Below, piece after piece: positions 1,662-8,674 of a stretch of 32,000 nt of DNA. Made by a program: the position numbers and the translations under genes. This DNA is from Microcoleus vaginatus GB1-A2 (GTDB taxonomy: Bacteria; Cyanobacteriota; Cyanobacteriia; Cyanobacteriales; Microcoleaceae): positions 1 to 32,000 of the forward strand of contig JAMPKS010000051.1 of assembly GCA_040004015.1 (NCBI GenBank). Direction: 5' to 3'. Position 1 is the stretch's first letter. Each line of letters begins with the position of its first letter. A model generated the notes under the pieces. It saw nothing but the letters and a program-made list of their open reading frames with translations. It did no database searches and was not told the origin of the DNA.

Positions 1662-2450
1662 TTAATCTCGCAATCCCCGATCGCGCAACAAAGCATCTGC
1701 CCAAGCTGCATCTGTTTCCGAGAGTGGCGGTACTGATGGCCTATTATAATCTATCTCCATATCGTAACCTGCAATATCATATATTCCATTGAACAGCATT
1801 TGCAAATCAACAACAGGCTCAGGATCTTCTGAACGCAAAGGCAACGGGAAAGAAGGAATTACATTCTGAATATTAAAAGCATATAAATCACCGCGAGGAC
1901 GGCGGTTGCCGCGACACACCAAAATGCGATAGTGACTCTCAATGTTATTGCCAACAATTGGCATGGGTTCCCCATTTCGCAGTAAATCAATTTCTATTAA
2001 ATGAGTGCGGGTACTTAGTACCTGTTGGCGTTTTTCTTCATACATCTGCCGTCCTTTACCAGAACGCTTATTAGTGGGTGAAACAATTTCAATCGCTGTT
2101 ATTACTTCTCTGGTTTCCACCTGTTTAATTTCTAAATAAGCTTCTTTGATAATCTCAGGAACAGGAATTGTCACAGTCACTGGTTGTGTTGGGGGTAATA
2201 AAACAGCCACATTCGGCATTGAAGGATTGCTGGCGTTTGCCAAACGCTGTACCGTTATATCTGGAATACCAACACTCACAGAACTTTCCCCGCTGGTTTC
2301 ATACATTCGCACTTCTACCGCGACTCGATATTTAGGCCGCAGTTGGGGAGATAAAAATCTTGCAATTTCACTAATCAGCAAGTTATGTATCCCAGGCCAA
2401 AAGTCGGGATGCTCTAAATACGGGTCCATTCCAGGAAAGGGAGATGGCAT
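1662..2450 (-). CDS. DUF4058 family protein
   Basis: The N-terminus MPSPFPGMDPYLEHPDFWPGIHNLLI is the hallmark start of the cyanobacterial DUF4058 family. AAGGAG lies 8 nt upstream of ATG 2450, so the track start at 2471 is probably too long. Confidence 0.85.
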   Translation of the reverse strand: MPSPFPGMDPYLEHPDFWPGIHNLLISEIARFLSPQLRPKYRVAVEVRMYETSGESSVSVGIPDITVQRLANASNPSMPNVAVLLPPTQPVTVTIPVPEIIKEAYLEIKQVETREVITAIEIVSPTNKRSGKGRQMYEEKRQQVLSTRTHLIEIDLLRNGEPMPIVGNNIESHYRILVCRGNRRPRGDLYAFNIQNVIPSFPLPLRSEDPEPVVDLQMLFNGIYDIAGYDMEIDYNRPSVPPLSETDAAWADALLRDRGLRD

Positions 2451-2579
2451 TGATGTGACTCCTTGACTCAACTCTATTTATAGTTTAGCAATGTTGTTTT
2501 GGGAAAATTAGGGGCGATCGCACTTCCGGTAAAATAGAATAATTCCTATTTGTGGAAGGGCGATCGCACTTTTTAACGC

Positions 2580-2936: not shown

Positions 2937-2952
2937 GGCTGTCAAGTGCAAG

Positions 2953-3165
2953 ATGGGTATAATTCGGTTGCGGGTTCGAGAACTAGCTGAGGAAAAGGGT
3001 TGGACGCTTAAAGAAGTTTCTGAGCGATCGGGCATTCCTTACAGTACCGTGAGAAGTTATGCCCATTCTCCCAAGCTGGCAACGGTAGATTACACAGCTT
3101 TAAACAAAATGGCTCGCGTGTTTGATATTGCGATCGAAGATTTAGTTGAGATTTTGGAAGAGTAG
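2953..3165 (+). CDS. Cro/C1-type (HTH_26-like) helix-turn-helix protein, copy 1 of 3
   Basis: 70 aa, MGIIRLRVRELAEEKGWTLKEVSERSGIPYSTVRSYAHSP... It has the typical XRE-family helix 2 / turn / helix 3 pattern. Confidence 0.85.
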   Translation: MGIIRLRVRELAEEKGWTLKEVSERSGIPYSTVRSYAHSPKLATVDYTALNKMARVFDIAIEDLVEILEE

Positions 3166-3185
3166 GCTGATTTTTTGCTGGGAAT

Positions 3186-3398
3186 ATGGGACGAATTAGG
3201 CTGCGAGTTAGAGAATTTGCTCAAGAGAAGGCTTGGAATCTGACAGAAGTATCCAACAGAACAGGTATTCCATATACCACGATCGTTACCTATGCCAATT
3301 CTCCAGGCATGGCTACCGTTGACTACACAGCTTTGGACAAGATTGCCCGTGCGTTCGATATTGCGATCGAAGATTTAGTTGAGATTTTGGAACAATAA
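3186..3398 (+). CDS. Cro/C1-type helix-turn-helix protein, copy 2 of 3
   Basis: 70-aa paralog, about 73 percent identical to copy 1 by manual alignment, and exactly 233 bp downstream of copy 1. Confidence 0.85.
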   Translation: MGRIRLRVREFAQEKAWNLTEVSNRTGIPYTTIVTYANSPGMATVDYTALDKIARAFDIAIEDLVEILEQ

Positions 3399-3418
3399 AC
3401 TGATTTGTCAGCGAGAAG

Positions 3419-3631
3419 ATGGGGCTAATACGGTTGCGAGTTCGAGAACTAGCTGAGGAAAAGGGTTGGACGCTGAAAGAAGTCTCTGACAGAACGGGAA
3501 TTCCCTACAGCACGGTTAAAAAATACGCCCAAGCTCCCAAAATGGCAACGGTGGACTATACGGCTTTGCAGAAACTTGCTGCTGTCTTCGATTTGATGAT
3601 CGAAGATTTGGTTGAGGTTTTGGAAAATTAA
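3419..3631 (+). CDS. Cro/C1-type helix-turn-helix protein, copy 3 of 3
   Basis: 70-aa paralog, about 79 percent identical to copy 1 by manual alignment, and exactly 233 bp downstream of copy 2. Confidence 0.85.
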   Translation: MGLIRLRVRELAEEKGWTLKEVSDRTGIPYSTVKKYAQAPKMATVDYTALQKLAAVFDLMIEDLVEVLEN

Positions 3632-3745
3632 GCTTAGGACTTACGCACGGGTGGTCAGAAACCGGGTTTTTTTGCATCAGACTTCGTTACAGCCCGCCGA
3701 TTCGGTAAAAAAACCGGTTTCGAGGAGTCGGAGTGCGTCGAAAAC
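3632..3745. mobile_element. MITE-like element, copy A
   Basis: Its termini ggacttacgcacgggtggtcagaaaccgggttttttt and aaaaaaaccggtttcgaggagtcggagtgcgtc are inverted. The core acttcgttacagcccgc is shared with copy B. It has no coding capacity. Confidence 0.6.
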
Positions 3746-3845
3746 AAACTGATTTGTCGCTCTTTGCAGTAAAAAAATATGAATATTGGAATTTTCCGGC
3801 TGTAAACTAAAGTCAGGAGTTTTTCAGTCTGCCGGAGTTATATCA

Positions 3846-4337
3846 ATGCCGATCGATCACCTGTCTGACGTGGAAGGGAACTTGGAAGATCTGAAAGAGC
3901 AATTAGTGGGCAAGGTAAAGGCTCTAAATTTAGCACCGCAAGAAGAAAAGATCCGAATTAAACAGCAAATCCGAGAGCTACGCAAGGAGATTCGGGAGCA
4001 GGAAGAGGAGTATTGGCAGGTTCTCGCTCAGCAAACGAAAACGGTGGAAATTCCCGAACATGAGGCTGAGATTATTGTTGCCGAGATTGTCGAAGAAGTT
4101 GGGCAAATTGAAGTGCAGGGACAGTATTCAGATGAAGTGCTTCAGATTTTGCAGGAGATTCGGGACAAGCTAAACCAACCGGGAGCAACAGCGGCCGCGA
4201 AACTTAAAGGCGTAATCTCAAGCATTCCGCCGTTTGTGGGAATTTCCTACGAGGCTGAATTGGATACAGAGAATTTTTTCCAGCGGCATTTCCCAACGTT
4301 TCGGAAGTGGGCTAAGGTATTAGCAAAAAAGTCCTAG
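3846..4337 (+). CDS. Coiled-coil protein (163 aa), probably the N-terminal module of the downstream STAND NTPase
   Basis: GGAG lies 8 nt upstream of ATG 3846, so the track start 3786 is unlikely. There is a charged heptad-like stretch EEKIRIKQQIRELRKEIREQEEEYW. The ORF ends GCA AAA AAG TCC TAG. Confidence 0.65.
   Translation: MPIDHLSDVEGNLEDLKEQLVGKVKALNLAPQEEKIRIKQQIRELRKEIREQEEEYWQVLAQQTKTVEIPEHEAEIIVAEIVEEVGQIEVQGQYSDEVLQILQEIRDKLNQPGATAAAKLKGVISSIPPFVGISYEAELDTENFFQRHFPTFRKWAKVLAKKS
4325..4331 (+). other. A_AAA_AAG heptamer in X_XXY_YYZ phase (candidate -1 frameshift or homopolymer indel site)
   Basis: Zero-frame codons are GCA(4323) AAA(4326) AAG(4329) TCC TAG. The -1 frame from 4331 (GTC CTA GAC...) is the frame of the NB-ARC ORF. 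Confidence 0.45.
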
Positions 4338-4441
4338 ACCGGGAGCGAAAAACACTTAATCCAGGTTTCACAAGTTTTTACCAACTATACGATATTCCCT
4401 CGGAACTCGGTTCAAAAAACTTTGTCGGACGGGATGAGGAA

Positions 4442-6874
4442 ATGCAGCAGTTGCACGGATTGTTGCAGGATGGAAGCCGCGTTGCCATTGCCGCTGCGTC
4501 GGGAATGGGCGGCATCGGCAAGACAGAATTGGTATGGCAGTATGCAACTTTTCACCGCGAACACAACACCTATCCAGCAGGGATTTGGTGGCTGTTTGTG
4601 CGGGACAACGATTTAGCGCCGCAGGTGTTGCAGAAAGCGCTGCGAATGGGAATTCAGCCGCCGGATACTCTCGACAATCTGGAGGAACGGTTGCAGTTTT
4701 GCTACGAAGAGTGGGCAAAACAAACCTCTGGCAATGCTCTGCTGGTATTGGATGATGTCAACGATTACCGCGCGGTGCAGCGGTTGCTGCCGAGAAATCC
4801 CCGCTTTAAGGTGTTGCTGACTGCGCGACAGCGACTGGAAGAAAAAACCGTGCAGCGATTGGATTTAAAGAAGCTCAGACCCTTGGATGCTTTCAAGTTA
4901 CTGTATGAAGTTAGTCAGGCAGAGACTCGCATTGTTCAGGAACAGATTGTTGCTGAACAATTGTGTGCTTGGTTGGAGTATTTGCCCTTGGGGATTGAAC
5001 TGGTGGCAACCTTTCTCAAGGTAGAGCCAGATGTGTCGGTAGCAGAGTTATTGGCACAGTTGCAGCAAAAGCTGTTGCAGGATGAGGTGCTGACTCCTGT
5101 AGCGGCGGCTTTTGAGTTAAGTTGGGTGCAGTTAAATGCTGCCGAACAGCAGTTGGCGGTATTGCTGAGTGTGTTTGCTTTGGCTCCCATGCCTTGGCAG
5201 TTGGTGGAGTCAGTGGTCGTAGTTTGTAGAGTAGAAGCCCCAAAGCAAAACTGGCTGAAGAAATTGTTTGTGGTGTGGGGAAAGGTGCAAGCACCTCAGC
5301 AGTGGTGTTTGCTACTGGACGATCGGGTTTTGAGCCAGAGTCGGCGGCGTTTGGTGGAGTTGAGTTTGCTGGGGCGCGTGGAGCAAAAGCAGTATCAACT
5401 TCATGCTTTGATTCGGGAGTTTTTTGCAGCCAAATTGCAGGGATACGCCGATGCTGAGAATTTGCGGAGAAGTTTTGCGGTGGTGCTGACAGCGGTGGCA
5501 AAGACGATTCCGCAGACTGTGACGCTGGAGGTGCAGCAACGGGTGAAGGAGGCGCTGCCCCATTTGGAGGTGGTGGCGGAACAATGGTCGCATTTGCTGG
5601 AAGATAGCACTGATGCTATGGGGTCTTTCACAGTCTTAGCGCGGGTTGCCCAGGGGCAGAGTTTGTGGGCAGAGGCGGAGAAATGGTATCAAGCTTGCCT
5701 GCAGATGACGGAGGAACGCTACGGAGCCGATCGTCCCGATACGGCAACGAGTTTGAACAATCTGGCAGAGCTATACCGTGCAATGGGACGCTACCCGGAA
5801 GCAGAACCCTTGTATGTGCGATCACTTTCTATCCGTGAGCAACAGCTCGGAGCCGATCGTCCCGATACGGCAATGAGTTTGAACAATCTGGCATTACTGT
5901 ACGGTGAAATGGGACGCTATCCGGAGGCAGAACCATTGTTAGTGCGATCGCTCTCGATCTCGGAGCAGCAGCTCGGAGCCGATCATCCCCATACGGCATT
6001 GGGTTTGAACAATCTGGCAGAGCTATACCGTGCAATGGGTCGCTACCCGGAGGCGGAGCCCTTGCTCGTGCGATCGCTCTCGATCCGTGAGCAACAACTC
6101 GGAGCCGATCATCCCAATACGGCAACGAGTTTGAACAATCTGGCAAATCTATACAATGCAATGGGACGCTACGCGGAGGCAGAACCCTTTTATGTGCGAT
6201 CGCTCTCTATCAACGAGCTGCTATTCGGAGCCGACGATCCTCATACGGCAACGAGTTTGAATAATCTGGCATTACTGTACGGTGAAATGGGAAGCTACCC
6301 GGAAGCGGAACCCTTATATGTGCGATCGCTCTCGATCAGGGAGCAACAGCTCGGAGCCGACCATCCCGATACGGCAGGCAGTTTGAACAATCTGGCAGAG
6401 CTATACCGTGCAATGGGACGTTACCAGGAGGCGGAACCCTTGTTAGTGCGATCGCTCTCTATCATGGAGCAGCAGCTCGGAGCCGACCATCCCCATACGG
6501 CAACGAGTTTGAACAGTCTGGCAGGGCTGTACTATGCAATGGGACCTTACCCGGAAGCCGAACCCTTGTTAGTGCGATCGCTTGCTATTAGGGAGCAGCA
6601 GCTCGGAGCCGACCATCCCGATACGGCAATAAGTTTAAACAATCTGGCAGAGCTATACTATGCAAGGGGTCGCTACCCGGAAGCGGAACCGCTTTACGTG
6701 AGAGCATTAAAAATCTTGTTTAACCGATTGGGAGAGAATCATCCCAACACCCAAAAAGTTTGGAGCAATTTCATTGATTGTCTCCAGCAGGCGATATCAA
6801 CGGGTCAAGACTCGCAGCTTTCCCAGCATCCAGCAACGCAAGCACTGCTTCAGCAACTTCGGGAGACGGAGTAG
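4442..6874 (+). CDS. NB-ARC (AP-ATPase) STAND NTPase with C-terminal TPR array
   Basis: Walker A GMGGIGKTE, Walker B LLVLDDVND, LLTAR (RNBS-B-like), YLPLGIEL (GLPL-like), then 8 full 42-aa TPR_10/12-type repeats. The reading frame is open from 4316 and encodes ...SELGSKNFVGRDEE upstream of ATG 4442 with no ATG/GTG/TTG, so the real N-terminus lies upstream. Confidence 0.9.
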   Translation: MQQLHGLLQDGSRVAIAAASGMGGIGKTELVWQYATFHREHNTYPAGIWWLFVRDNDLAPQVLQKALRMGIQPPDTLDNLEERLQFCYEEWAKQTSGNALLVLDDVNDYRAVQRLLPRNPRFKVLLTARQRLEEKTVQRLDLKKLRPLDAFKLLYEVSQAETRIVQEQIVAEQLCAWLEYLPLGIELVATFLKVEPDVSVAELLAQLQQKLLQDEVLTPVAAAFELSWVQLNAAEQQLAVLLSVFALAPMPWQLVESVVVVCRVEAPKQNWLKKLFVVWGKVQAPQQWCLLLDDRVLSQSRRRLVELSLLGRVEQKQYQLHALIREFFAAKLQGYADAENLRRSFAVVLTAVAKTIPQTVTLEVQQRVKEALPHLEVVAEQWSHLLEDSTDAMGSFTVLARVAQGQSLWAEAEKWYQACLQMTEERYGADRPDTATSLNNLAELYRAMGRYPEAEPLYVRSLSIREQQLGADRPDTAMSLNNLALLYGEMGRYPEAEPLLVRSLSISEQQLGADHPHTALGLNNLAELYRAMGRYPEAEPLLVRSLSIREQQLGADHPNTATSLNNLANLYNAMGRYAEAEPFYVRSLSINELLFGADDPHTATSLNNLALLYGEMGSYPEAEPLYVRSLSIREQQLGADHPDTAGSLNNLAELYRAMGRYQEAEPLLVRSLSIMEQQLGADHPHTATSLNSLAGLYYAMGPYPEAEPLLVRSLAIREQQLGADHPDTAISLNNLAELYYARGRYPEAEPLYVRALKILFNRLGENHPNTQKVWSNFIDCLQQAISTGQDSQLSQHPATQALLQQLRETE
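5741..6748 (+). repeat. Eight tandem 126-bp units encoding the TPR array
   Basis: Units start at 5741, 5867, 5993, 6119, 6245, 6371, 6497 and 6623. Long stretches are identical at DNA level, e.g. ggcagagctataccgtgcaatggg recurs. Confidence 0.9.
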
Positions 6875-6911
6875 CTGTTGCTGCTAGAGCGATTGTTGCC
6901 AATTTCCTACA

Positions 6912-7015
6912 AAACTTACGCATGGGGTCCAGAAACCGGGTTTTTTCGAGAATACTTCGTTACAGCCCGCAGATAATGCAAAAAACCCGGTTTCTCTGAC
7001 GAAGCGCATAAGTCC
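6912..7015. mobile_element. MITE-like element, copy B (same orientation as copy A)
   Basis: It reads cttacgcatggggtccagaaaccgggtttttt ... aaaaaacccggtttctctgacgaagcgcataagtcc and shares the core acttcgttacagcccgc with copy A. Confidence 0.6.
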
Positions 7016-7058
7016 AGATCGCATTAAAAAGAGATAAGTTGCGATTTTTCGTTTGGTG

Positions 7059-7115
7059 GGGGCGGGTTTTTGAGATTGTCTATCTGTGTCATAAAGGGTT
7101 GGAAAAACCCGCCCC
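7059..7115. repeat. Long-loop inverted repeat ggggcgggttttt / aaaaacccgcccc
   Basis: Perfect 13-bp arms (7059-7071 and 7103-7115) with a 31-nt loop lie between the convergent STAND gene and ubiD. It could be a terminator or a small palindromic element. Confidence 0.35.
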
Positions 7116-7165
7116 TAGAGGTCGATCGAGGATGTGCGATATGTCAGATTTTAGGGTTGATTCCC

Positions 7166-8674
7166 CTACTTCATCTCATATCCAAACAAATTCGGATCGA
7201 CTTCTCCCAAATTCAAATCAGCCAAACCATACTCAGCCCAACGCCTTTCTACCATCGCCGCCACATCCGGATCGGACTCCAAAACTTCCCCCCATTCATG
7301 ATCGGTTTCCGGCGGCATCTTCGTAGTAGCATCAATCCCCATTCTGCCTCCCAAACCAATCTTTTCACTGGCAAAATCTAACGTATCAAAAGGCGTATTC
7401 GGCAGAATAAAAACATCCCGAACCGGATCGACTTTAGAACTAATTGCCCAAACTACTTGACGCGGGTCGCGAATGTTGATACTTTTATCCACAACAATCA
7501 CAAACTTAGTGTAAGTAAACTGCGGTAATGCACTCCAAAATGCTAAAGCAGCCCTGCGCGCTTGACCGGGATATGCTTTATCAATCGAGATAATTGCGGC
7601 CTTATAACTCAGGGCTTCCATCGGTAAGAAGAAATCGACAATTTCCGATACTTGCTGCCGCAAAATAGGCGTATAAATACGGTTAAGCGCGATCGCCATC
7701 ATTGCTTCTTCTTTCGGCGGCCGCCCGCTAAATGTCGTCAGATAAATCGGGTCTTTGCGGTGCGTCATGCAGTGGAATCGCACCAACGGCGAATCTTCCA
7801 CGCCGCCGTAATAACCCATGTGATCCCCGAAGGGCCCGTCGGGCAGAACTTCCCCCGGCGTAATCGTTCCTTCTAACACAATTTCCGAGTCCGCCGGTAC
7901 TTCCAAATCTACGGTTTTGCACTTGGCCAATTGCACGCCGGAACCGCCGTAAAGTCCGGCAAATAACCATTCCGATAAATCTACAGGAATTGGGGTTGCT
8001 GCGGCGAGAATAATCAGGGGATCGACTCCAAGGGCGATCGCAACTTCCAACTTTTTACCAGCCTGCGCCGCTTTCCGCAAGTGCCGCGCGCCGCCCCGCA
8101 CCGATAACCAGTGTACAGTCATCGTGTTTTTTGACTGCAACTGCAACCGATAAACCCCCACATTCGGCGTGCCCGTTTCGCAATCTTTGGTAATTACCAA
8201 ACCCAGGGTGATAATTTTGCCGGCATCTCCCGAATAAGGGCGAATCATCGGGATTTTGTTCAAATCCACCCCTTCTCCCTCAAATACCACTTGCTGACAA
8301 GCTGGGAAAAAGTCGCGGCCCGGTTTAGCCTTCACTACGTCAAACAGCACTTTGCCGAATTCTATCGCTTGGGAAATCTTTTTCGGCGGTTTTGGCTGTT
8401 GCAGCATTCCCAGTTTTTTGCCGAGCTCTTCTAGTTCGATCGGCTTTTCCATGTTCATCGCCCAGCAAACCCGCTGTTCCGTACCCAAGAGGTTAATGGC
8501 GACGGGGAAATCTGCCCCTTTGACGTTTTCAAACAGCAGTCCAGGGCCGCCTTTTTGCAGCATTTGGTTGGAAATTTCGGCAATTTCGAGGTCGGAATCG
8601 ACTAAGGCGCTAATCCGGCGCAGTTGTCCCCGTTCTTCAAGTAGTTTTAGGAATCCCCGCAAGTCTCTAGCCAT
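7166..8674 (-). CDS. ubiD: UbiD-family (4-hydroxy-3-polyprenylbenzoate) decarboxylase
   Basis: 502 aa. It resembles UbiD across its full length (MARDLRGFLKLLEERGQL..., GPFGDHMGYY, RVVWAISSKVDP). Confidence 0.9.
   Translation of the reverse strand: MARDLRGFLKLLEERGQLRRISALVDSDLEIAEISNQMLQKGGPGLLFENVKGADFPVAINLLGTEQRVCWAMNMEKPIELEELGKKLGMLQQPKPPKKISQAIEFGKVLFDVVKAKPGRDFFPACQQVVFEGEGVDLNKIPMIRPYSGDAGKIITLGLVITKDCETGTPNVGVYRLQLQSKNTMTVHWLSVRGGARHLRKAAQAGKKLEVAIALGVDPLIILAAATPIPVDLSEWLFAGLYGGSGVQLAKCKTVDLEVPADSEIVLEGTITPGEVLPDGPFGDHMGYYGGVEDSPLVRFHCMTHRKDPIYLTTFSGRPPKEEAMMAIALNRIYTPILRQQVSEIVDFFLPMEALSYKAAIISIDKAYPGQARRAALAFWSALPQFTYTKFVIVVDKSINIRDPRQVVWAISSKVDPVRDVFILPNTPFDTLDFASEKIGLGGRMGIDATTKMPPETDHEWGEVLESDPDVAAMVERRWAEYGLADLNLGEVDPNLFGYEMK

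Follow-up and report, generated by a model that had tools for sequence, protein, structure and literature searches.

The window analysed here is a 32,000-nt stretch of the cyanobacterium Microcoleus vaginatus GB1-A2 (contig JAMPKS010000051.1, positions 1 to 32,000), in which a gene for a small all-helical domain (open reading frame 1, ORF1) ends at a slippery heptamer, A_AAA_AAG, and a start-less frame leads from the same heptamer into an NB-ARC/TPR protein of the STAND NTPase type (ORF2). Comparison with related loci makes a programmed -1 ribosomal frameshift of the dnaX/IS3 type the probable explanation of this junction, with a 163-aa protein and a 1,009-aa fusion as its products. A dnaX-type fusion was also the principal reading of the original prediction, and it is now supported by conservation of the heptamer and stop together with selection acting in the -1 frame.

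The junction between ORF1 and ORF2

The final codons of ORF1 are GCA AAA AAG TCC TAG (4323-4337), and the residues up to and including the AAG codon number 162 of 163. Inspection base by base confirmed that the heptamer is in X_XXY_YYZ phase and that the codon following a -1 slip, GTC (4331), lies in the NB-ARC frame, the one that contains ATG 4442. A TAA at 4313-4315 closes the -1 frame, which is open from 4316 and runs to 6874, and its codons at 4331-4441 (VLDRERKTLNPGFTSFYQLYDIPSELGSKNFVGRDEE, 37 codons) include no ATG, GTG or TTG, as first described. The predicted trans-frame protein would join ORF1 residues 1-162 to 847 residues of the -1 frame across the junction ...KVLAKK-VLDRER..., and the earlier total of 1,009 aa is correct, as 162 residues end at AAG. 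A mechanical ORF call also offers a TTG at 3786 as an alternative ORF1 start, which gives a 183-aa ORF. Coordinates of the features are collected in Table 1.

Table 1. Features at the ORF1-ORF2 junction, in window coordinates. SD, Shine-Dalgarno; CC, coiled-coil
Feature	Position	Strand	Description
Likely SD of ORF1, GGAG	3833..3836	+	9 nt 5' of ATG 3846; inference, read from sequence
ORF1	3846..4337	+	163 aa, all-helical 'CC' domain, own ATG; zero-frame (non-shifted) product
SD-like TAAGGT, candidate 5' stimulator	4313..4318	+	6 nt 5' of heptamer; anti-SD duplex -7.2 kcal/mol
Slippery heptamer A_AAA_AAG	4325..4331	+	X_XXY_YYZ phase of ORF1
-1-frame extension without start codon, 37 codons	4331..4441	+	N-terminal NTPase part including LYDIPSELGSxxFVGR
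Complete -1-frame ORF	4331..6874	+	847 codons plus stop
Zero-frame stop TAG	4335..4337	+	one codon 3' of slip site
Stem-loop AGACC.GGA / TCC.GGTTT	4336..4368	+	15-nt loop; starts 4 nt 3' of heptamer
NB-ARC (STAND NTPase) domain	4433..5077	+	Pfam PF00931, E 7e-13, residues 35-249 of -1 product
TPR_12/TPR_10 repeat array, putative sensor	5648..6871	+	Pfam TPR_12, E 2.5e-147

In the proposed mechanism, ribosomes would initiate at ATG 3846 and read the 162-codon helical domain until tRNA-Lys occupies AAA in the P site and AAG in the A site. A fraction would then slip back one base at 4325-4331 and resume at GTC 4331 in the NB-ARC-TPR frame to give the 1,009-aa CC-NB-ARC-TPR protein, and unshifted ribosomes would terminate at TAG 4335 and release the free 163-aa domain, so that two proteins would arise from one mRNA. 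Stimulation is likely to come from the upstream SD-like TAAGGT and from a stem-loop that starts approximately 5 nt downstream, with the adjacent zero-frame stop as a possible third contributor. Sequence comparison shows how the site is built and conserved, the coding constraint in the -1 frame, the hairpin of the family and natural in-frame fusions; that the slip takes place on the ribosome, and how efficiently, is inference.

The window contains 15 copies of AAAAAAG, where 20.3 would be expected. The heptamer alone is thus no more than chance, and its significance rests only on comparative data. A scan of the window gave no promoter or terminator signal beyond chance between the two ORFs; a promoter-like match at 4367-4396 was discarded as being at chance level (5 found against 4.1 expected). 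An Rfam search of the whole window returned no family match.

The NTPase module of ORF2 begins 5' of the first methionine of its frame. The Pfam AAA_16 alignment starts at residue 30 of the -1 product and position 2 of the NB-ARC profile aligns to residue 35 (PF00931, 48.8 bits against a cut-off of 23.5), both upstream of Met38. Because these alignments begin 5' of Met38, ATG 4442 cuts into the module, in agreement with the prediction that it would truncate a conserved element. The -1 product contains intact Walker A (GMGGIGKT) and Walker B (LLVLDDV) motifs and a C-terminal TPR_12/TPR_10 array, and the N-terminal helical domain reaches ORF2 only via the frameshift. PADLOC assigned nothing beyond a generic TPR match. 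About 49 NB-ARC-TPR homologues in Microcoleus (63-99% identical) are all annotated from the methionine equivalent to 4442, and the ORF1 homologues all finish in ...AKKS at the equivalent position.

That the extension is genuine coding sequence follows from more distant NB-ARC proteins (P0050 and P0058), which carry homologous residues (LYDIPAELGSxTFVGR) in frame behind their own start. Across 13 Microcoleus loci, the ratio of nonsynonymous to synonymous change (pN/pS) over the 34 start-less codons at 4340-4441 was 0.19 in the -1 frame, compared with 2.4 and 1.5 in the other frames, and the second half of the extension has accumulated only synonymous substitutions. On these alignments purifying selection on the extension is confined to the -1 frame. 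The peptide encoded by 4331-4441, whose conservation had been put forward as a check, is therefore conserved, and a conserved independent start or ribosome-binding site was not found among these loci.

The NB-ARC/TPR protein of the window comprises 810 aa from its first methionine, compared with 768 aa in its 99%-identical orthologue P0001 (L077, 3001-5307). The gap of 42 aa corresponds to one TPR repeat unit of the array at window 5648-6871, and further homologues measure between about 680 and 780 aa, which suggests, from the sequences compared, variation of repeat number in the putative sensor.

Conservation of the junction and the alternatives to frameshifting

An alignment of the ORF1 domain was searched against one genome per species, yielding 76 cyanobacterial loci from Microcoleus, Tychonema, Stenomitos, Leptolyngbya, Nostoc, Anabaena, Microcystis, Pseudanabaena, Limnothrix, Symploca, Coleofasciculus and other genera, with domain identities to the window as low as 34-45%. 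ORF1 in these loci is mostly standalone, with its own ATG and a length of about 162-168 aa. An in-phase heptamer, a nearby stop and a -1 ORF that either reaches 150 codons or more or continues off the contig end were present together in 55 of the 76 loci and in the window, making 56. The heptamer is A_AAA_AAG in 45 and A_AAA_AAA in 11, and the stop follows after 0 codons (21 loci), 1 codon (25), 3 codons (9) or 12 codons (1). Orthologous and paralogous loci alike thus keep both heptamer and stop, the outcome that the original prediction had looked for.

The -1 ORFs extend to as many as 1,076 codons among the 56 loci, and a further junction of A9C type (L071) is followed by an nSTAND1-WD40 ORF of 1,258 codons. 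Upstream of the site, the open stretch of the -1 frame has a median length of only 5 codons, and the first start codon is found a median of 37 codons in. The modules encoded are NB-ARC-TPR, NACHT, nSTAND1-WD40 and nSTAND4 proteins, a CHASE2 membrane protein and transmembrane (TM)-TPR proteins; in an nSTAND1-WD40 locus, position 1 of the nSTAND1 profile falls at residue 9 of the -1 product. Because the -1 ORFs encode different modules, the conserved entity is the junction and not the downstream gene.

Constraint at the junction is visible in its nucleotides. The codon preceding the heptamer ends in A in 56/56 loci, where the expected frequency of A at third positions is 0.22-0.63 depending on the amino acid, although its identity varies (GCA 32, AAA 13, CTA 8, CCA 2, GTA 1). 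The Lys-Lys (KK) pair is encoded AAA-AAG in 45/56 junctions, compared with 29/133 KK pairs elsewhere in the same ORFs, and an in-phase A_AAA_AAG recurs at only 3 of 43,950 codon positions elsewhere in them. Judged from these frequencies, selection works at the nucleotide level on the junction. Three ORF1 orphans that have no downstream ORF (L020, L021 and L076) carry AAAAAAC or GAGAAAAC in place of the heptamer. In these Tychonema and Oscillatoriales loci (L020, 4490-4560; L021, 1170-1260; L076, 225-300), short tandem repeats of GGGCATAGGGCAT type replace the downstream ORF and the heptamers have decayed.

Downstream structure was assessed by folding 50 nt from +3 in each sequence, with shuffled sequences (z) and segments of the same size within the ORFs as controls. 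The 45 loci with an AAAAAAG heptamer gave a mean z of -1.88 against +0.10 in controls (Mann-Whitney U test (MWU), p=1e-11), a difference that persisted after 12 other near-identical Microcoleus loci were dropped and L001 kept (n=33, p=4e-8). In the 42 plain-A6 (A6G) loci with a long -1 ORF the mean minimum free energy (MFE) was -12.2 kcal/mol and the mean z -1.97. Hairpins of the A6G loci begin at about +5 to +7, positions +5 to +15 are paired in most of them, and the stem sequences vary by lineage (CCCTCGA/TCGAGGG, CCTCTGAT/ATCAGAGG and CTTCTCCTG/CAGGAGAAG). In an orthologue of the window (L001) the stem has 9 bp (-11.6 kcal/mol, z -2.5). Upstream, 8-mers at 14 start positions 8-22 nt before the heptamer were paired with the anti-SD; the best duplex in 33 dereplicated A6G loci averaged -5.45 kcal/mol, compared with -3.26 kcal/mol for the ORF background (MWU p=4e-5). 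Strong SD-like elements (GGAGG, AGGAG and GGGGG) were found in Limnothrix, Pseudanabaena and Microcystis loci, and elsewhere they were modest. The TAAGGT of the window was located where originally described, with a measured spacing of 6 nt instead of about 7.

Several points weigh against a ribosomal frameshift. All support for it is comparative, and the phase of the heptamer could be shared by descent, so that the 56 loci are not 56 independent observations. The stem of the window itself (-6.9 kcal/mol, z -0.15) is no better than its shuffles, because of one internal mismatch, 4341 being G where orthologues have T; to that extent the original remark that no convincing stem-loop is present holds, yet a stem at this position does exist, is intact in orthologues and is a feature of the family. 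Hairpins of the relatives L013, L026, L034, L057, L058 and L064 are likewise no better than shuffled sequences. RNAalifold found no consensus structure in a naive alignment of 17 heptamer-anchored sequences, since loop lengths differ and the 3' arms are out of register, and the pair counts given above derive from single-sequence MFE folds, which are weaker than formal covariation. The enrichment of SD-like sequence is modest, and Lys-Gly/Ala/Val codons may account for part of it. Finally, a GTG, TTG or ATG lies 6-13 codons from the junction in L041, L058, L064, L065, L059 and L062 and could act as a separate start.

Such near-junction starts in a few relatives would fit a scheme in which ORF2 is translated separately, from ATG 4442 or a non-canonical codon within 4316-4441 and perhaps coupled to termination, with KK being a feature of the protein. 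This scheme is considered very unlikely. It agrees with gene callers, which split the two ORFs in every genome, but initiation at ATG 4442 would drop conserved and selected NTPase residues, no start codon is conserved, and in the nSTAND4 group the first start lies as far as 264 codons (the maximum) inside conserved sequence. An ATT at 4319 is in the -1 frame directly after AAGG; it is missing in paralogues, which read GGC ACT AGC there, and was rejected as an infC-like start on account of this absence and of abutting AAGG with no spacing. In a distant relative (L075) the next gene does begin independently, at an SD-preceded ATG in another frame, and overlaps the stop of ORF1; it resembles another coiled-coil protein and is not an ORF2 homologue. 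The xxA wobble before the heptamer and the choice of AAA-AAG are nucleotide constraints that a KK conserved at the protein level cannot account for, and natural in-frame fusions also count against separate translation.

Such fusions are found both among the retrieved loci and in databases. The A7 loci L012 and L050 read in frame through ...AKK-VVD... and ...AKK-ALA..., L025 is fused in frame by an A10 where its relatives have A9, and database entries comprise P0190 (CC-nSTAND1), P0259 (CC-AAA_16-TPR) and P0166 (...ALKKVVG...FVGRE). Their existence indicates that the fused architecture is viable, and the fusion junction matches that predicted for a -1 shift.

The length of the A-run bears on whether the junction reflects heritable A6/A7 switching (phase variation), gene decay or a sequencing error. 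The same A6 tract recurs in every one of the 13 Microcoleus loci (the window being one of them) that have a long -1 ORF, as well as in L077 and some 30 other genera, although the flanking bases vary. L077, a syntenic orthologue in an independent 3.6-Mb assembly, reads CCA AAA AAG TCC TAG; its preceding codon has changed from GCA to CCA with the final A retained, and its hairpin is intact. Sequencing error and pseudogenisation, both raised in the original prediction, are excluded by this shared A6. Homopolymers are prone to indels, and 3 of about 62 loci are in the +1 A state; L011 and L015 retain the heptamer but no longer the downstream ORF, and the NB-ARC region is gone from L012. On the other side, a run of six A lends itself poorly to slipped-strand events, the zero-frame stop is retained directly after the site, and the -1 ORF is under purifying selection with its Walker motifs intact. 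On/off switching of the tract, also considered originally, was not observed among close relatives: A6 is present in 14/15 Microcoleus-group loci examined with a downstream ORF, and a single A7 allele (L012) is tied to a deleted NB-ARC, which is not the pattern of a phase-variable tract. This group of explanations is accordingly given hardly any weight.

In L012 (4440-5890; the junction is shared with P0065), the A7 run fuses the CC domain directly to the TPR array with the whole NB-ARC deleted (...AKKVVD-HPDTATSLNNL...), the deletion endpoint falling just after the third codon of the extension. In L056 (4440-4560), from one metagenome-assembled genome (MAG), an ORF1 homologue without the heptamer is separated from the NB-ARC ORF by a single in-frame TAG (...GQSND*LQSSG...FVGRD...), for which stop-codon readthrough or a nonsense mutation is possible given the sequence. 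L049 (760-900) has an A9 run followed by an nSTAND4-type ORF in the +1 frame, not the -1 frame; with a very low contig coverage (cov 0.06), this may be an assembly indel.

A further alternative is transcriptional slippage, whereby RNA polymerase would insert an extra A and a fraction of A7 mRNA would encode the fusion for an unshifted ribosome. An A7 template does yield an exactly in-frame fusion, as L012 and L050 demonstrate, and 16 related loci, mostly nSTAND4 genes of Nostoc and Anabaena, carry A9 or A10 runs that start in differing codon phases and have no downstream hairpin (mean z about -0.5 in 13 folded loci), which is the signature of Thermus dnaX/IS-type slippage. For this A9/A10 subclass, transcriptional slippage is probably the better explanation on present sequences. 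Productive slippage generally requires about 8-9 or more A/T (Baranov 2005; Atkins 2016, PMC5009743), a homopolymer length that is lacking in the window and 41 other loci, which carry only A6. Moreover, several features are signals to the ribosome and would be superfluous for polymerase slippage, of which the known stimulatory hairpins sit 5' of the run: the X_XXY_YYZ phase is strict, a G invariably follows the run, a hairpin lies approximately 5 nt to its 3' side and an SD-like element lies upstream. For the window, slippage by the polymerase therefore appears unlikely. The division within the family, between A6G with a hairpin and A9/A10 without one, mirrors that of dnaX, where the E. coli gene relies on programmed ribosomal frameshifting at A_AAA_AAG and the Thermus gene on slippage at A9 (PMC3711429). 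A8-A10 runs in insertion sequence (IS) elements of Nostoc have likewise been proposed to act by transcriptional slippage (PMC1088944).

The helical domain, its partners and known systems

The exact sequence of the window ORF1 had no record in a look-up, and the orthologue L077 was located via protein P0001. ORF1 matched no family in Pfam, NCBIfam or PADLOC, with nothing significant. An AlphaFold2 model calculated from a 50-sequence alignment was all-helical, with eight helices and a predicted local distance difference test (pLDDT) score of 89.7, and consists of a long hairpin (H3-29/H32-64) plus six shorter helices. A Foldseek search of the model against the PDB returned generic helical bundles only, all with E >= 0.3. 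EACC1 (Kaur et al.) was rejected as the identity of ORF1, being a single-TM actinobacterial domain.

With ORF1 as query, an exhaustive HMMER search retrieved 216 cluster representatives (E<1e-3). In the 150 best matches the domain nearly always stands alone or forms the very C-terminal end of the predicted protein, and many of the proteins terminate in KK, KKS or KKK. N-terminal partners of the domain include TIR, SEFIR/TIR, TRADD-N, SNF2 helicase, Roc-COR-LRR and NACHT. An adaptor or oligomerisation role is suggested for ORF1 by its position and by its free and sensor-linked occurrence, and a fixed ratio of free to sensor-fused domain may serve homotypic assembly or signalling.

Across the loci compared, the helical domain behaves, along with the heptamer and the linker encoding the hairpin, as part of a portable cassette placed before many STAND/sensor modules, and the cassette can itself carry N-terminal effector-type domains (TIR, TRADD-N). 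The original prediction underestimated the system on three counts: the hairpin belongs to the family as a whole, the cassette is found across the phylum and the downstream modules are many. More speculatively, and with appreciably less confidence than the frameshift itself, the unit could be a mobile 'recoding cassette' by which one NLR-like gene yields a fixed ratio of free adaptor/effector to sensor-tethered adaptor, the tethered CC domains, oligomerised upon activation, nucleating or recruiting free copies. The free forms would then be CC alone, TIR-CC or TRADD-N-CC, and one gene would stand in, by analogy, for an NLR and its adaptor, as paired in NWD2/HET-S or NLR/ASC. The stoichiometry of amplification would be set by how efficiently the frame is shifted, and the ribosomal (A6G) and transcriptional (A9) versions would have been interchangeable in evolution.

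The closest mechanistic likeness is to E. coli dnaX, which has the identical heptamer and phase, an SD-like element upstream, a hairpin downstream and two products sharing an N-terminus. High shiftiness of A_AAA_AAG in E. coli goes with the decoding of AAG by a single tRNA-Lys(UUU). The dnaX shift truncates its product, with a -1 stop soon after, whereas here the shift would add 847 aa and it is the zero frame that stops at once. The SD spacing also differs (10 nt in dnaX, 6 nt here), the window hairpin is weak, the gene families are unrelated, and the dnaX frameshift is experimentally proven while that of the window is predicted from sequence comparison.

A second likeness is to OrfA-OrfAB of IS3/IS911, in which a small N-terminal protein ends just after A_AAA_AAG, a -1 ORF has no start, the long fusion to a large catalytic module is functional, and 3' structure, sometimes a 5' SD, and a nearby zero-frame stop are present. 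Unlike IS3/IS911, the window locus is not a mobile element, having no transposase domains or inverted repeats, and the downstream modules are STAND NTPases and sensors, with one cassette serving many non-homologous modules. The G/GT tail assembly chaperones of phages share a fixed ratio of short to extended product and a position conserved despite diverged sequences; they differ in their slippery sequences and proteins, in their morphogenesis context and in a short extension, against 847 aa here.

In domain layout, the loci resemble the bacterial NLR-like/STAND conflict systems described by Kaur, Burroughs, Iyer and Aravind (2020, 2021), which feature effector-associated domains (EADs), TRADD-N and Death-like domains. 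Shared features are the NB-ARC/NACHT/nSTAND plus TPR/WD40 layout, TIR or TRADD-N (in ORF1 of relatives), a small helical domain both free and sensor-linked, and enrichment in filamentous cyanobacteria. The ORF1 domain differs in matching no EAD, Death-like or other Pfam model and no solved fold, and the conflict systems use two genes for the free and sensor-linked copies where here one gene would provide both by recoding. Frameshifting is unmentioned in the searchable text of the 2020 and 2021 papers. A recoding review (Atkins 2016, PMC5009743), GeneTack (PMC3711429, without its supplementary tables), a survey of E. coli heptamers, Baranov 2005 and papers on bacterial NLRs contained no report of frameshifting in cyanobacterial STAND/NLR-like genes, in a search that mostly left subscription journals outside. 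The mechanism is thus of a known kind, and what is new is the gene family, the portability of the cassette and the A6G/A9 split within one family.

To our knowledge, conserved -1 frameshifting occurs in few bacterial genes outside mobile elements and phages (dnaX, copA, cdd and csoS2). If the frameshift reading is correct, it would add a phylum-wide case in STAND genes of the immunity or cell-death type, in which the signal travels with the domain before unrelated modules. Annotation would be affected in Microcoleus, Nostoc, Anabaena, Microcystis, Leptolyngbya, Pseudanabaena and other genera, the sensor half being misannotated from an internal methionine as a "tetratricopeptide repeat protein" and the upstream half as "hypothetical". 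With the sensor half called without its NTPase start and N-terminal domain, surveys of domain architecture would therefore miss the N-terminal modules of this clade. Heterologous expression or phage-defence tests would need an intact junction or a deliberate fusion of the frames, and the ratio of short to long product would become a directly testable parameter of NLR-like signalling.

Genomic neighbourhood

The window flanks of the locus encode a DUF4058 protein (1662-2471, minus strand), a UbiD-family decarboxylase (7166-8674, minus strand) and an ECF/ABC ATPase (839-1537), none of which is obviously tied to the NLR-like locus. In L077, an IS605 OrfB/TnpB-like gene lies upstream (1-1087) and a DUF6887 gene (5476-6246) lies between the NB-ARC gene and ubiD; the latter is missing at the corresponding position of the window (6875-7165). 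Directly 5' of ORF1, at window 2950-3634, are three tandem genes for 70-aa Cro/C1-type helix-turn-helix (HTH) proteins (HTH_26), 73-79% identical and with a period of 233 nt. These are not homologous to the HTH N-terminus of long Microcoleus ORF1 paralogues. Two copies of the tandem HTH gene are present in L077.

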